64,000 bases of DNA, from positions 160,001 to 224,000 of the forward strand of contig CAWCFX010000004.1 in the NCBI GenBank assembly GCA_963795085.1, read 5' to 3'. Both the position numbers and the translations under genes were made by a program. Positions within the stretch are counted from its first letter, which is position 1. Each line of letters opens with the position of its first letter. Positions 48,479 through 55,620 of this stretch are shown in pieces. Source of the stretch: an uncultured Gemmatimonadales bacterium (GTDB taxonomy: Bacteria; Gemmatimonadota; Gemmatimonadetes; Gemmatimonadales; GWC2-71-9). Below the pieces are notes generated by a model. It did no database searches. It saw nothing but the letters and a program-made list of their open reading frames with translations, and had not been told where the DNA came from.

Positions 48479-49873
48479 CTATTGTGCAAACAGCTCCTGG
48501 CGGGCCATCTCGATGCGCTCCCGGAGGCTGCGGTCGCGGGCGATCTGGCGCTGCACCTTGTCCACGCTGTGAATGACCGTGGAGTGATCCCGGCCGCCGA
48601 ACGCCTGGCCGATTTCGACCAACTGCATCTGGAGCAGGTCCCGCGCGAGGTACATGGCGATCTGGCGCGGGACTGTCAGGGTCTTGATGCGCGCCTTGGA
48701 GCGCAGCCCCTCCGGCGTTACGCCCCACCGGCGGGCAATCACTTCCTGGACCTTGTCGATCGTCGGGAGAGCCTTGTGGGCCGGCGTCCCGGCCTCCTCG
48801 CCGACTCTAATCTTATCGGACAGGGCGTCCCGGGCCAGTTCGATCGACACCTCCCGGTGCTTGAGCGAGGCGAAAAGCAGGAGCTTGATAATGCAGCCTT
48901 CGAGTTCCCGGACGTTGCTCCGCACGTGTTCGGCGATAAACCGCAGCACGTCGTCCGGAATGGTCAGCTCCAGGTGGTCCTGCTCCTGCTTCTTTCGGAG
49001 AATGGCGATCCGGTGTTCCAGGTCCGGCTGGCCGATGTCCGCCACCATGCCCCACTCGAAGCGGCTCACCAGCCGGGCTTCCAGGCCGGGGATCTCCTTG
49101 GGGGGCCGGTCGGAGGTCAGGACGATCTGCTTCTTGCCCTCATACAGAGCGTTAAATGTATGAAAGAACTCCTCCTGGGTCATTTCCTTGCCTTCCAGGA
49201 AATGCACGTCGTCCACCAGGAAGAGGCCCACATCGCTCCGGTAGCGGCGCCGAAACTCCGGCATGGTACGGCTGTGGATGCTTTCGATGACCTCGTTGAT
49301 GAACTGTTCCGCCCCCACGTACAACACCTGGGTGGACGGGTCCCGCTCGCAGACGGCGTGGGCAATGGCCTGCATGAGGTGGGTCTTGCCCAGGCCGGTG
49401 GCGCCGTAAATGAAGAGCGGGTTGTACGTCTTTCCGGGGGATTCCGCCACGGCATGGGCGGCGGCGGCGGCCAACTCGTTGGACTTGCCGATAACGAAGG
49501 TATCGAAGGTGTATCGCTCGTTGAGCGGTTGAGTGCTGCTGTTGCCGCCGGCCGGGGCCGCGGCCGGCGCGGCCGAGGCCTGGGGGGCCACGAAGAAATC
49601 CATCTGGGGCCGCCGCTGGCGGTCCTCCTGGACCTGGAAGACCACGGCGGTGGGCCGGCCCACGACCGGCTCAGCCAGGCGGGACAACAGGCTGGCATGC
49701 TTGGACTCGTTCCACTGCGCCGCGAAATGATCCGGGGCGCCCACGATCAGCCGGCCGTCGTCGAGGGCTATGGCCTCGGCGGGTTCAAGCCAGGTACGGA
49801 CCGTATGTTCCGGTAATTCGCGATGCGCCTCTTCGAGGATGCGCTTCCAAGCTTCTTTTGCGGACAGCTGCAT
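48479..49873 (-). CDS. dnaA: chromosomal replication initiator DnaA
   Basis: YNPLFIYGATGLGKTHL, QEEFFHTFN, NVRELEG, GGRDHSTV. Confidence 0.99.
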   Translation of the reverse strand: MQLSAKEAWKRILEEAHRELPEHTVRTWLEPAEAIALDDGRLIVGAPDHFAAQWNESKHASLLSRLAEPVVGRPTAVVFQVQEDRQRRPQMDFFVAPQASAAPAAAPAGGNSSTQPLNERYTFDTFVIGKSNELAAAAAHAVAESPGKTYNPLFIYGATGLGKTHLMQAIAHAVCERDPSTQVLYVGAEQFINEVIESIHSRTMPEFRRRYRSDVGLFLVDDVHFLEGKEMTQEEFFHTFNALYEGKKQIVLTSDRPPKEIPGLEARLVSRFEWGMVADIGQPDLEHRIAILRKKQEQDHLELTIPDDVLRFIAEHVRSNVRELEGCIIKLLLFASLKHREVSIELARDALSDKIRVGEEAGTPAHKALPTIDKVQEVIARRWGVTPEGLRSKARIKTLTVPRQIAMYLARDLLQMQLVEIGQAFGGRDHSTVIHSVDKVQRQIARDRSLRERIEMARQELFAQ

Positions 49874-49912
49874 CAGGACTCAACAATCGGTGGGTGCTTT
49901 CAAGGGCAGACG

Positions 49913-49941
49913 ATTGTACCGGGCAGATGTGGAAAAGTCAA
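49913..49941 (-). promoter_or_regulatory. dnaA promoter overlapped by a DnaA box
   Basis: TTGACT-N17-TACAAT on the minus strand; TTTTCCACA at 49936-49928. Confidence 0.75.
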
Positions 49942-50003
49942 CCTTGACCTAAAGGCATGGCTGTAGGTAGCTTCTCGGGCTCATTGGAGGATACAAGGAT
50001 CGC

Positions 50004-50165
50004 ATGAAACCGTCATACAGGCCGCGGAACCGGCGGCGAATCAACAAGCATGGATTCCGGGCCCGGATGGCCACCAGGTGGGGCCGCGAGGTCCTGTCCC
50101 GGCGCCGCAAGAAGGGCCGCAAGCGGTTGACCGTCTCCCTGCCGTCGAAGCACGGAGGGTCCTGA
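50004..50165 (+). CDS. rpmH: 50S ribosomal protein L34 (below the ORF-track length cutoff)
   Basis: [44 protein letters not shown], divergent from dnaA. Confidence 0.97.
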
Positions 50166-50515
50166 CGCCGAGCGAGCGACTGGTGCGAGCCCGAAGGCTC
50201 GCCCGGAGCTCGGATATCCACCGCTGCCTCGCGGAGGGTAAGCGTCACCGCACGGCGCACTTAGAAGTCATCTGGGCCGAGAATGATACGGGCCACCCGC
50301 GGATGGGACTGATCGTTCCCCGGTTCCAGTCATCCGCAGTGGCCCGCAATCGTGTGCGGCGGCGCCTGCGGGAGGTATGGCGGCGGGAAATACAGGCCCG
50401 GCAGCCGGCCTGGGATCTGATCCTGCGGGCCCGGCCGGCCGCGTACCAGGCGACCTTTGCCGAATTGCGGGGAGAGTTACTGGCGTGGCGCGACCTGGTC
50501 ATCCCGTCCAGCTGA
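50162..50515 (+). CDS. rnpA: RNase P protein component
   Basis: RMGLIVPR and [13 protein letters not shown]; position after rpmH; start uncertain. Confidence 0.92.
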
Positions 50516-50748
50516 CCTTCCGCTGGATCGTCGCCCTGCCGCGTCGCGCGGTGGCGGGCCTGATCCGGGGATACCAGGTGGCCATTTCCCCGCTCTTGCC
50601 AGCAAGTTGCCGGTTTCACCCCTCATGCTCCCAGTACACCAGGGAAGCCGTGATCCGGTATGGCGTGTTCCGAGGCGGTTGGATGGGTTTGCGGCGTCTG
50701 GCGAGGTGTCACCCGTTTCACCCCGGTGGTTTTGATCCAGTTCCCTGA
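50485..50748 (+). CDS. yidD: membrane protein insertion efficiency factor YidD
   Basis: [31 protein letters not shown]. Confidence 0.95.
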
Positions 50749-52516: not shown

Positions 52517-53845
52517 ATGCTGTCCGATCCGATTGCCGCCCTGGCTACGCCCGCCGGGCGGTCCGCCCTCGCGGTCGTGAGGCTGAGCGGGGAGGGAGCG
52601 TTTGCGGTCGCCGGGGCCGTCATCGAGAAGTTCCGGCCCTCCCCTCCCCGCCAGGCCCGGCTGACCCGGTTTCGCCGGGCCAATGGGTCCATCATTGACC
52701 AGGGCATCTACATCGTCTATCCCGGCCCGGGAAGCTATACCGGGGAGGACCTGGTCGAATTCTCCACCCATGGCGGGTTGGTGGCCGCGCCGGCCCTGCT
52801 GGGCGCACTGTACGCCGCCGGAGCCCGGGCCGCGGCCGCCGGAGAGTTTACCCGGCGGGCCGTCCTGAACGGCAAACTGGACCTGCTCCAGGCGGAAGCC
52901 GTCGGTGACCTGATCGACGCCACCGTGCCAGCCCAGGCCCGGCTGGCCCTGACCCAGCTCGATGGCGCACTCTCCCGGCGGATCGGCACCCTCCGGACGA
53001 ACCTGATCGACCTGGAGGCCCTCCTCAGTTATTCCATAGATTTTCCCGAAGAGGACGATGGCCCGCTGCCGATCGAGCGGGTGCTGGCGGTGCTTGATGA
53101 GACCCTGCACCAGGTGGGACAACTGCTGCGCTCCGGCGCCACCGGCCAGCGTGTGCGGGAGGGCGCCCTGGTGGTCATCGCGGGTCGCCCCAACGCGGGT
53201 AAGTCGTCGCTGTTCAACGCGCTGGTTGGCACCGACCGGGTGCTGGTGAGCGAGACCCCCGGAACCACCCGGGACGCGGTGGAGGCGTTCACCGATTTCG
53301 AGGGCTGGCCGATCCGGCTCATGGATACGGCCGGGCTGGGAGACTTTGCCCAACGAGTGGACCAGATGGGGGTAGGCGTGAGCCGGCGCTACATCGAGGC
53401 CGCCGACCTGGTGCTGCTCTGCGTCGAAACAGGGCGCAACCTGGACGAGGAAGAGGTTCGCCTCCGGGACGACCGGGTGCTGCTGGTGCGCACCAAGCAC
53501 GACCTGGCTGCATCCCCCCTGTCCGAGGACGGCGTTCCCGTATCGGCACTAACCGGGGAAGGTCTCGACGTGCTGGCGCGGGGGGTGGTGGCGCGGGCGT
53601 TCGGGGAAGGGATCCCCCTGGCCGACCTGGAGCCCGCCCTGACCCGGGAACGCCACCGGGAGCGGCTCTATCAGGCCCAGGCGTCATTGGAACTCGCCCG
53701 GTCACAATGCACTCCCCAGGGCGACCCCGTGCTGGTGTCCCATCATGTCCGGCTGGCGGTCATCCAGCTCGAGGAACTGATTGGGACGGTGGACCTGGAG
53801 GCCGTGCTCGACCGGGTCTTCACCAGTTTCTGTATCGGCAAGTGA
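52517..53845 (+). CDS. mnmE: tRNA modification GTPase MnmE
   Basis: SYTGED, GRPNAGKSS, GTTRD, DTAG, FCIGK. Confidence 0.97.
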   Translation: MLSDPIAALATPAGRSALAVVRLSGEGAFAVAGAVIEKFRPSPPRQARLTRFRRANGSIIDQGIYIVYPGPGSYTGEDLVEFSTHGGLVAAPALLGALYAAGARAAAAGEFTRRAVLNGKLDLLQAEAVGDLIDATVPAQARLALTQLDGALSRRIGTLRTNLIDLEALLSYSIDFPEEDDGPLPIERVLAVLDETLHQVGQLLRSGATGQRVREGALVVIAGRPNAGKSSLFNALVGTDRVLVSETPGTTRDAVEAFTDFEGWPIRLMDTAGLGDFAQRVDQMGVGVSRRYIEAADLVLLCVETGRNLDEEEVRLRDDRVLLVRTKHDLAASPLSEDGVPVSALTGEGLDVLARGVVARAFGEGIPLADLEPALTRERHRERLYQAQASLELARSQCTPQGDPVLVSHHVRLAVIQLEELIGTVDLEAVLDRVFTSFCIGK

Positions 53846-53876
53846 CCGCCAGGGGTGGAACCCCGAGGAGAATGTA

Positions 53877-54452
53877 ATGACCACGTCGTGGCTCCCCTCG
53901 CTCGCCGCCGCCATGGCGGCGGCTGAAACCAGCGGTAAGTCGATTCTCCTTGCCGTGCATGCCCCTGGTTGAATGGGTTGCAAGGCCATGGATACCGTGA
54001 CGTATCCCGACCCGGAAGTGGCTGCCTTCATCGCGGCCGAGTTTGAGGCAGCGCAGGTGCACATCGGCGACCCGGACCAGGCCTCCCGCGATAGCATCCG
54101 GCGTTACCGACTGCTCTGGGCGCCCGGATTCGTGGTTCTGGGCAGCAAGGGTGACGAGTTACGGCGCTTCTTAGGCTTCCAGCGGCCCCGGGATTTCATC
54201 GCGGACCTGCGGATGGGGCTGGGCAAGGGCCGCCTGCTTCAACGACGGTATGACGAGGCGTTTCGGGAGTTTCGGGCGACGGCGGACCTCGACCCTCCAG
54301 CACCGGTCAGCGACGAGGGAGTCTACTGGGCTGGTATTGCACTACACTACCGGGACAAGACCGATCTGGAATTCCTGCACCAGTACTGGGAGGAGTTGCG
54401 GCGGCGGTTTCCGGAGAGCCGGTGGTGGACGGCGGCGGACGTTTTCAGGTGA
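53877..54452 (+). CDS. probable selenoprotein: thioredoxin-fold protein with UxxC motif and C-terminal TPR-like helices (191 aa, Sec32)
   Basis: SD GAGGAG (53865-70), ATG 53877, in-frame TGA 53970-72 giving ...KSILLAVHAPG-U-MG-C-KAMDTVTYP; SECIS-like hairpin immediately downstream. Confidence 0.82.
53975..54013 (+). promoter_or_regulatory. putative bacterial SECIS element
   Basis: Lower stem GGGTTG/CGACCC, upper stem GGATAC/GTATCC, apical loop CGTGAC starting 24 nt after the UGA. Confidence 0.7.
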
Positions 54453-54485
54453 GAAGTGAGAGGGGACACTTCTCACTTCTCACCT
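54447..54485. terminator. 15-bp perfect inverted repeat built from 7-mer repeats, between convergent genes
   Basis: AGGTGAGAAGTGAGA-9nt-TCTCACTTCTCACCT; contains both stop codons. Confidence 0.65.
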
Positions 54486-54679
54486 CGCTTGTGGCTGCCA
54501 TCGCAGAAGGGCCGATTTTCGGACCGGCCACAGCCGCACAGCTTGATGACTCCGGGCTGTTTGAACGGGGGAATCGGGATTTCGTTGCCATCCGGGTCCA
54601 TGATGCGCGCGGCGCCATGAATGACGATCGTGCCGGAGGGTTTGACCGTAATGCTGATCGGTTCCTCCGGCTGGCTCAC
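54473..54679 (-). CDS. CDGSH iron-sulfur domain protein
   Basis: LCGCGRSENRPFCDGSH. Confidence 0.93.
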   Translation of the reverse strand: MSQPEEPISITVKPSGTIVIHGAARIMDPDGNEIPIPPFKQPGVIKLCGCGRSENRPFCDGSHKRGEK

Positions 54680-55620
54680 GCGGTTTGGACTCCCCGGGCC
54701 GCGTCCTCCGCCACTTGGAAGTCCCGGGCCGGTGCCCGCACCGCCTGGGAGATCCCTCGTTCCGCCACCAGCGACTCGGCCATCCGCCAGCCCAGGTAGT
54801 ATCCAGACCGCTCCGGCAGCACTCGTCCGTTGACCAGCCTCGCTGCGGGGCTCATCCCGCCGCTGAGATAGCGCAGCCGGAGCCCCAGCCCGGCCCGCTC
54901 AAGGTCGGGCTCCGCGGAGCGCCGGAGGAACGAGTCCAGTTCCCGGAGGCGGTTGTACTGGCGCTTGGGATATCCGAAGTAATTGGCCGGCACGAAGCCC
55001 GGCGCCACCGCCTGGGCGGCATGGACGGCCACCCCTTCGTTGATCAGCAGCTCGCGGAGGGTGGCGCGGCTGCCAGTGGTCCAATAGTCGTAGTACCCAC
55101 CCGCTTCATGGATCAGCCGGCGCATGTCGCTGTTGCTGGTCGGAGAAGTGTAGCGGACCAGGTGGGCGTACTCGTGTCCCACCCAGATGGGAATGAGCTC
55201 GGGAGTCAGGCCGAGGCTGTAGGTGTCAGGGTTGGCGCGGCCGGTGAAATGCTCCAGGCAAATGAACATGACCCCGCGGCCGCCCACCACCAGCTCTCCC
55301 GCGTTGGCGGCACCCATCCCCACCATGATATAGCAATCGGCCGGCCGGTCCACGCCAAGGACTTCCTCGGCCCGGTTAAGGGCCTGCTCCACGATTTCGA
55401 CGACGTCCACGGAGGCGATCAACTCCCAGAGGTCACTGCGGTCAGCGCTCATGGCCTGGCTGATGATCTCGGCCGCCGGCGGACTGTCGAGGTCCATGAC
55501 GTAGTTGTGCCAGTACGCCTGGAGCAGCGGGCGGTGATTATCGAGATACTTGTAGTAGGCCTTTTCGCGGTCGGGGGCCTCGAGGACCGCCAGGAATTCC
55601 GGAAGGAGATTGATCAGCAC
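54676..55620 (-). CDS. putative Zn-dependent peptidase (DUF2268-like)
   Basis: HEYAH, downstream NEGVA, ERSGYYLG. Confidence 0.7.
   Translation of the reverse strand: MLINLLPEFLAVLEAPDREKAYYKYLDNHRPLLQAYWHNYVMDLDSPPAAEIISQAMSADRSDLWELIASVDVVEIVEQALNRAEEVLGVDRPADCYIMVGMGAANAGELVVGGRGVMFICLEHFTGRANPDTYSLGLTPELIPIWVGHEYAHLVRYTSPTSNSDMRRLIHEAGGYYDYWTTGSRATLRELLINEGVAVHAAQAVAPGFVPANYFGYPKRQYNRLRELDSFLRRSAEPDLERAGLGLRLRYLSGGMSPAARLVNGRVLPERSGYYLGWRMAESLVAERGISQAVRAPARDFQVAEDAARGVQTA

Follow-up and report, generated by a model that had tools for sequence, protein, structure and literature searches.

Background

Thioredoxin-fold selenoproteins with a UxxC motif are a well-known kind, and their chemistry is standard. 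The described systems closest to the gene reported here are the Thioredoxin_7/DsbH/DsbD-gamma reductases, the selenoprotein family named 'thiol:disulfide interchange protein', and the two-domain chaperedoxin CnoX/YbbN. A review of 2026 counts 119 selenoprotein families, and it gives the bacterial SECIS (bSECIS) model of Zhang and Gladyshev as a hairpin with a loop of 3-9 nt, a stem of 4-16 bp, a spacing of 16-37 nt after the UGA, a G within the first two loop positions and a free energy limit of -7.5 kcal/mol (PMC13188914). With the catalogued thioredoxin-fold selenoproteins the present locus has in common a selenocysteine (Sec) in the redox motif and a hairpin just after the UGA.

The locus lies in a stretch of 64,000 nucleotides from an uncultured Gemmatimonadales bacterium, and this whole stretch is called the window in what follows. 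One of its genes, on the forward strand at 53877..54452, is interrupted by a single in-frame TGA, and from the comparison of homologous sequences described below, the 'stop' codon that splits the gene almost certainly encodes an active-site selenocysteine.

Results and Discussion

A gene split by one TGA codon

As read directly from the sequence, the coding sequence of the selenoprotein gene consists of 191 codons and a terminal TGA (54450-52), in the same frame as its start ATG (53877-79), and holds only one internal TGA, at 53970..53972 on the forward strand, after which the codons ATG-GGT-TGC follow directly. The mechanical list of open reading frames gives the gene in two pieces, 53781..53972 and 53973..54452, and if the TGA is read as U, a protein of 191 residues results, with ...LLAVHAPG-U-MG-C-KAMDTVTYP... 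around the codon. A hidden gene split by one TGA is what a sequence-only reading of this DNA had proposed, and its frame, coordinates and read-through length of 191 residues all agree with ours. It had also pointed to a strong Shine-Dalgarno (SD) sequence before ATG 53877 and to none before ATG 53973, and both points are borne out: a Shine-Dalgarno-like GAGGAG is read directly at 53865..53870 (forward strand), 6 nt ahead of ATG 53877, and no purine-rich SD is found by eye ahead of ATG 53973. The TGA codon (U32) opens a U-M-G-C motif and aligns with the N-terminal Cys of CxxC forms, and the Cys35 codon TGC (53979..53981, forward strand), the putative resolving residue of the UxxC motif, is the same in all 53 aligned sequences. 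The start and end points of the homologues are equivalent to those of the window gene. The terminal TGA at 54450 was considered as a second Sec codon as well, because a strong hairpin follows it, and was rejected, as 65 of 133 homologues end there in TAG or TAA.

Fold and domains of the read-through protein

The read-through protein matches Pfam Thioredoxin_7 (PF13899) over residues 5-74, that is to say across the TGA, with 42.4 bits against a cut-off of 27 (E 7.8e-11). The Thioredoxin_2 and Thioredox_DsbH models also lie above their cut-offs, and so does PF13098 with 33.8 bits against 27. The AlphaFold2 model, which was run on an alignment of 53 relatives, has a mean pLDDT of 96.7 and a pTM of 0.92, and in it a strand at residues 22-28 leads to U32 and then to a helix at 33-42; as modelled, U32 occupies the classical CxxC position at the start of the helix after the central strand. 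By Pfam and AlphaFold alike, residues 1-31, which are encoded ahead of the TGA, make up the first strand and the first helix. The thioredoxin-fold domain delimited by Pfam, AlphaFold and structural matches covers residues 1 to about 103 (53877..54185, forward strand) and is of the DsbH/DsbD-gamma/Thioredoxin_7 type. Its closest type is DsbH (2ju5; Z 13.9, rmsd 1.9 over 117 residues), followed by a thioredoxin from Thermus thermophilus (2lst; Z 13.6, 28-30% identity) and by DsbD-gamma (1vrs; Z 12.4), and a Foldseek match for the domain has an E of 2.4e-7. Positions U/C32, C35, W81, P83, E147, Y150, W151 and W183 are invariant in the 53-sequence alignment, and W81-x-P83 would be the cis-proline loop. 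Since the fold begins already at residue 5, no signal peptide could precede it, and the selenoprotein is presumably cytoplasmic.

Residues 104-187 (54186..54437, forward strand) form a helical domain with a near-invariant P-E-A-x-Y-W-x-G motif (146-153), and its helices in the AlphaFold model lie at 104-121, 125-136, 145-160, 164-177 and 182-187. It matches the TPR structure of BamD (5efr) with a Z of 11.6 over residues 103-191 and aligns in structure comparison with the TPR regions of YbgF and YfgM also, and among the 53 relatives the YbgF model TIGR02795 matches 45 and the BamD model 36. The TPR-like tail suggested by the sequence-only reading is backed by these structural and model matches; we call it TPR-like and not a member of YbgF or BamD, because helical-repeat Z-scores of such a size are common.

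Comparison with known families

Compared with the Thioredoxin_7/DsbH/DsbD-gamma reductases, the window protein has the same fold and the same active-site position, but Sec stands here in place of the first Cys, a TPR-like domain is added, and neither a signal peptide nor a membrane domain is present. For the window protein and its 53 relatives, no NCBIfam model comes near its cut-off, the nearest being TsoB, DsbD, VPGUxxT and Trx7/PDZ. More specifically, the DsbD model (NF001419) gives 40.5 bits against a cut-off of 330, only its last ~110 profile positions (465-570) being matched; the VPGUxxT type 2 model (NF041383) gives 12.7 bits against 275, and the motif is APGUMGC here (PG-U-xG-C) rather than VPGUxxT; the Trx7/PDZ model (NF041199) gives 12.4 bits against 300, with no PDZ match and with UxxC here instead of CxxU; and the model of a rhodanese-bearing thioredoxin gives 28.3 bits against 805, where only its C-terminal thioredoxin part matches and no rhodanese domain is present in our protein. 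The 'thiol:disulfide interchange protein' selenoprotein family (PF13098, UxxC) resembles the window protein in its Pfam match as well as in its UxxC motif, going by the review's description of the family (PMC13188914). A TPR tail occurs in none of the selenoprotein families listed in the sections covered (PMC13188914), and the full-text literature searched (including PMC13188914, PMC12013277, PMC13326102 and PMC9312934) mentions, in the parts covered, neither a UxxC selenoprotein with thioredoxin and TPR domains nor Gemmatimonadota, though BSepDB and the supplements may list the family. In short, this is a genuine, mis-annotated selenoprotein gene for a predicted UxxC thiol oxidoreductase, of a family that we did not find catalogued, the PF13098 UxxC family having been compared by description only.

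A profile search over 1.84 billion cluster representatives was used to see this family at large, and it returned 306 proteins at E<=1e-30. The best 150 of these 306 representatives comprise 67 CxxC forms, of which 50 have a single domain and a length of 171-230 aa, together with 58 short calls (<=170 aa) which begin just after position 32 and which, from where they begin, would most simply be Sec forms cut by gene callers. A further 6 are SxxC and 4 are CxxS forms, and 1 has W at position 32; the remaining 14 are 9 longer proteins without position 32 and 5 with some other residue there. The W-bearing relative (P0136, …FFNPG-W-GGCKELD…) is probably a gene call made under a table with TGA as Trp.

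The single-thiol variants in this set bear on another reading of the same selenoprotein, namely as a chaperedoxin like CnoX/YbbN, where the tail would hold unfolded or oxidised clients and the motif would form protective mixed selenenylsulfides rather than act as a general reductase. The SxxC and CxxS forms speak for it, as YbbN itself has an SxxC motif; so do the architecture of a thioredoxin domain with a C-terminal TPR domain, which recalls E. coli YbbN, the Foldseek alignment with 3qou over 201 columns, and the lack of a conserved operon partner (see below). However, the alignment with 3qou has an rmsd of 11.2 at 12% identity, so the domain arrangement differs; the thioredoxin domain belongs to another subfamily, of the Thioredoxin_7/DsbH type, and no CnoX sequence model matched; the tail, with ~85 residues, is much shorter than that of YbbN; and the motif here holds Sec. 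We therefore regard a chaperedoxin role as attractive but unlikely, and prefer the reading of the protein as a selenocysteine-dependent thiol-disulfide oxidoreductase.

Conservation of the TGA codon

Orthologues of the gene were searched in 60 related genomes of the order besides the window genome. Full-length orthologues are found in 4 of the 60, with 69, 61, 58 and 32% identity, and each of the four has exactly one internal stop, which is TGA at the same codon; in 32 other relatives with a match, only thioredoxin domains of larger proteins were found. Altogether 5 of the 61 genomes of the order have the gene, though selA is near-universal there.

In addition, 160 loci were fetched, 80 from species-representative genomes and 80 from metagenomes. 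Codon 32 is TGA in 147 of them, TGC (Cys) in 4, CGA in 1 and CAC in 1, the rest being 6 loci that do not cover the position and 1 that was mislocated (L206). As one of the two patterns used for scanning carried Cys at position 32, any bias in this sample would have disfavoured TGA. The 80 genome loci are labelled Gemmatimonadota (38), classes of Acidobacteriota (25), Myxococcota or 'delta' (7), Bacillota (5), Eisenbacteria (3), Methylomirabilota (1) and Verrucomicrobia (1), a tally counted by hand from the depositors' labels, whose classes we assigned to phyla ourselves. Upstream of the TGA the sequence is conserved as protein, W5, A16 and P30 being present in at least 90% of 53 sequences. The Sec/Cys exchange that is classically looked for in selenoproteins is found here many times over, since the 4 TGC loci and the 67 CxxC forms align with the TGA.

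A single locus of the class Vicinamibacteria (L085:3001-3558) has CGA (Arg) at the Sec codon together with an intact SECIS hairpin (6 of 6 pairs), and it is near-identical to a TGA-bearing metagenome locus (L136); the CGA stems either from a recent mutation or from an error of assembly.

As for the window gene itself, contigs from three other sequencing runs of two studies (X1, X2, X4) cover 53970-72 with the TGA unchanged and vary at nearby synonymous sites, one of them stopping 3 nt beyond the codon, and a sequencing error at the TGA is thus excluded. That the split is neither chance nor error is confirmed, because all 4 orthologues and 147 of the 160 loci have TGA at this codon and the contigs of other runs agree. 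The sequence-only reading had named several observations that would speak against it, i.e. Trp or another non-Cys residue at position 32 in homologues, no homology upstream of the TGA, another letter at 53970 in the reads, and a genome without Sec machinery. Every one of them was examined and the reading stood in each case: homologues have TGA or Cys at position 32 and not Trp, the 31 residues upstream are conserved and form part of the fold, the contigs of the other runs show TGA and no other letter, and the machinery is present as described below.

Public annotation presents a different picture, in that all 45 database homologues are shortened 'hypothetical protein' calls of 112-167 aa, which amounts to 51-82% of the read-through. 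These calls agree with the TGA as a true stop, leaving either a pseudogene or two products, a short peptide from the upstream part and a protein of 154-159 residues from the downstream part, and an ATG (53973) does follow directly after the TGA. However, a nonsense mutation is not expected at one and the same codon in 147 loci under at least 7 phylum-level labels with 31 upstream codons conserved as protein; moreover, the downstream piece would lack the first strand and the first helix of the fold along with its first redox residue, its ATG has no SD, and the full-length relatives carry Cys at the position. Accordingly a true stop is very improbable, and we keep to the codon as one for selenocysteine.

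A SECIS-like hairpin in two registers

Downstream of the UGA, at 53990..54007 on the forward strand, lies an 18-nt SECIS-like hairpin, GGAUAC-CGUGAC-GUAUCC, with a 6-bp stem and a 6-nt loop; the loop starts 23 nt after the UGA and has G and then U at its positions 2-3. Set against the bSECIS model of Zhang and Gladyshev, as the review describes it, the loop, the stem, the G and the spacing all fit, but the hairpin folded alone reaches -6.0 kcal/mol, which is weaker than the limit of -7.5 (PMC13188914). The z-score of the hairpin alone is -2.6; an 81-nt stretch around the TGA folds no better than its shuffles (z -0.40), and neither does a 43-nt stretch (-10.0 kcal/mol, z -0.01). Single-sequence folding is thus not distinctive, and it is only the comparison of homologous sequences that supports the hairpin.

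In the subgroup of the window gene, with 17 distinct sequences, 98% of the stem cells are paired and two pairs show compensatory changes, this covariation consisting of two single-sequence changes, a level which 8 of 500 shuffles reach as well. A larger subgroup of 111 distinct sequences has another hairpin, CUCGGC-UGGAU-GCCGAG, seven bases closer to the UGA, whose core helix is 99.2% paired, again with two compensatory pairs, one from G-C to A-U (4 sequences) and one from C-G to U-A (1 sequence). Altogether, all 146 Sec forms tested form 5-6 of the 6 pairs in one register or the other, and 137 of them form all 6; the four Cys forms have 2, 3, 4 and 3 of the 6 pairs, the His form has 4, and the CGA form has 6. 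With respect to the bSECIS model, the particular point is that two different hairpins in different registers occur within one protein family. GAT and TAT, the codons used in the stem, are in the minority among the Asp and Tyr codons of five neighbouring genes, with 25% and 29%. Because the same bases encode the conserved peptide MD(T/A)VTYP, the nucleotide conservation is in part that of the protein.

Selenocysteine machinery of the genome

The sequence-only reading implied that selA, selB, selC and selD would be found elsewhere in the genome, and this prediction holds, as selA, selB, selD and a tRNA-Sec were all detected in the window genome (93% complete, 6 contigs). The scores are 507.6 bits for selA, 313.9 for selB and 384.9 for selD, all above curated cut-offs, and the tRNA-Sec has 68.4 bits against a threshold of 47 and is also called by ARAGORN as tRNA-SeC with anticodon TCA. 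The selD gene, which is located outside the window (G000 contig C4:64282-65202; L001:1441-2540), is itself a selenoprotein gene, with an in-frame TGA in the active site ...SHGAG-U-ACKLG..., i.e. in the GAGUxxK site. Among 61 genomes of the order, a tally which includes one unpublished genome (G018), 54 have selA above the cut-off, so the use of Sec is the rule in the sampled Gemmatimonadales.

The remaining alternative, that UGA is read as another amino acid (Trp, Gly or Cys) through a variant code or near-cognate decoding, could appeal to the one database relative with W, itself most simply called under a table with TGA as W, but it is hardly tenable, as TGA terminates mnmE, the selenoprotein gene itself and 68 of 133 homologous ORFs, the genome encodes every part of the Sec machinery and its selD is of the Sec type, the codon is followed by a hairpin specific to the TGA forms, and the position is that of the catalytic Cys of the fold.

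Genomic neighbourhood

Upstream of the gene lies a cluster of the replication-origin type (window 48479-50748), in which dnaA on the reverse strand faces rpmH, rnpA, yidD, yidC and mnmE on the forward strand; here rpmH, rnpA and yidD are small ORFs identified by eye from their translations. The mnmE gene (52517..53845, forward strand; Pfam TrmE_N, MnmE_helical and MMR_HSR1) ends 31 nt before the selenoprotein start. On the other side, two genes on the reverse strand converge on the selenoprotein gene, one for a CDGSH iron-sulfur protein of 68 aa (54473-54679) and one for a DUF2268 protein, a predicted Zn protease (54676-55620), the two overlapping by 4 nt. Between the convergent selenoprotein and CDGSH genes there is a perfect 14-bp hairpin at 54450..54482, which starts at the stop codon; it folds with -22.7 kcal/mol (z -5.5), as well as none of 200 shuffles does, and probably terminates the convergent transcripts. 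Our terminator pattern scan missed this hairpin because it has no T-run. The scan for promoter and terminator patterns over 53600-54750 gave no match at all, and therefore says nothing for or against co-transcription with mnmE.

The order yidC-mnmE-gene-CDGSH-DUF2268-rhomboid is shared by just 8 loci of closely related Gemmatimonadales. In three relatives (L054-L056), compared with the window, L052, L053, L057 and L058, the selenoprotein gene by itself is turned round within the conserved slot between mnmE and the CDGSH gene, and thus converges on mnmE; in two other related loci the CDGSH and selenoprotein genes share one strand, unlike in the window, where they lie on opposite strands; and in all 8 related loci the selenoprotein and CDGSH genes are adjacent. 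In one of the 8 loci (L080:2640-3240) the gene is reduced to a remnant, in which some 15 codons from the N-terminus (MSHWHPALEAARAAA) and, in a different frame, the TPR-like tail (residues ~116-190) are left, the thioredoxin domain with the Sec codon having been deleted. By de novo clustering of the flanking ORFs, which were picked by GC3 and hence crudely, no neighbour is conserved in more than 9 of 133 loci and none hints at a substrate, and since no neighbour recurs widely, the selenoprotein gene behaves as a stand-alone unit. The co-transcription with rpmH-yidC-mnmE that had been suggested from the sequence is therefore plausible in the window, where the gap is 31 nt with no intervening pattern, but it does not extend to the family: the gene is not a conserved operon member, because it is inverted relative to mnmE in three related loci.

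A proposed mechanism

Taking these results together, our main reading is that of one gene for a cytoplasmic selenoprotein of 191 residues, in which UGA codon 32 would be read as Sec by means of SelB and the hairpin, and whose product would be a thioredoxin-fold oxidoreductase with a TPR-like tail; we give this reading a probability of roughly 0.9. In such a scheme, SelB carrying Sec-tRNA(Sec) would be recruited by the hairpin at 53990-54007, which lies within the coding sequence, and the UGA would thereby be decoded as selenocysteine. The resulting protein, with its U32-x-x-C35 motif, would act as a thiol-disulfide (selenol-thiol) oxidoreductase: the selenolate at residue 32 would attack an oxidised substrate, Cys35 would resolve the adduct as a selenenylsulfide, and a separate reductant would recycle the latter. 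The TPR-like C-terminal domain, with four to five helices and the PEAxYWxG motif, probably binds the substrate or a partner. A Sec-dependent thiol oxidoreductase is also what the sequence-only reading had arrived at; the Sec/Cys position, the fold and the machinery support it, and the redox chemistry itself is what we infer from them.

Conclusions

The gene described here sets right an annotation error found repeatedly in public data, as gene callers routinely truncate the family, which is widespread among soil bacteria: all 45 database homologues, as well as 58 of the best 150 of the 306 representatives, are cut N-terminally and have lost the catalytic residue. It also adds a selenoprotein to soil phyla which the reviews searched do not name in the parts covered. 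In addition, the family offers many naturally occurring Sec/Cys pairs along with two alternative SECIS hairpins, a large set which would be useful for training selenoprotein predictors and bears on how a SECIS element can be rewritten and still encode a conserved peptide. From an evolutionary point of view, a wider picture is possible, one that we put forward tentatively and with more doubt than confidence: an uncatalogued family, combining a Thioredoxin_7-type domain with a short TPR-like domain, would be common in soil Gemmatimonadota, Acidobacteriota, Myxococcota, Bacillota and others, with numerous Sec and Cys forms and with two SECIS hairpins having evolved within it, and its members may serve these bacteria as selenium-dependent, chaperedoxin-like guardians of client proteins.
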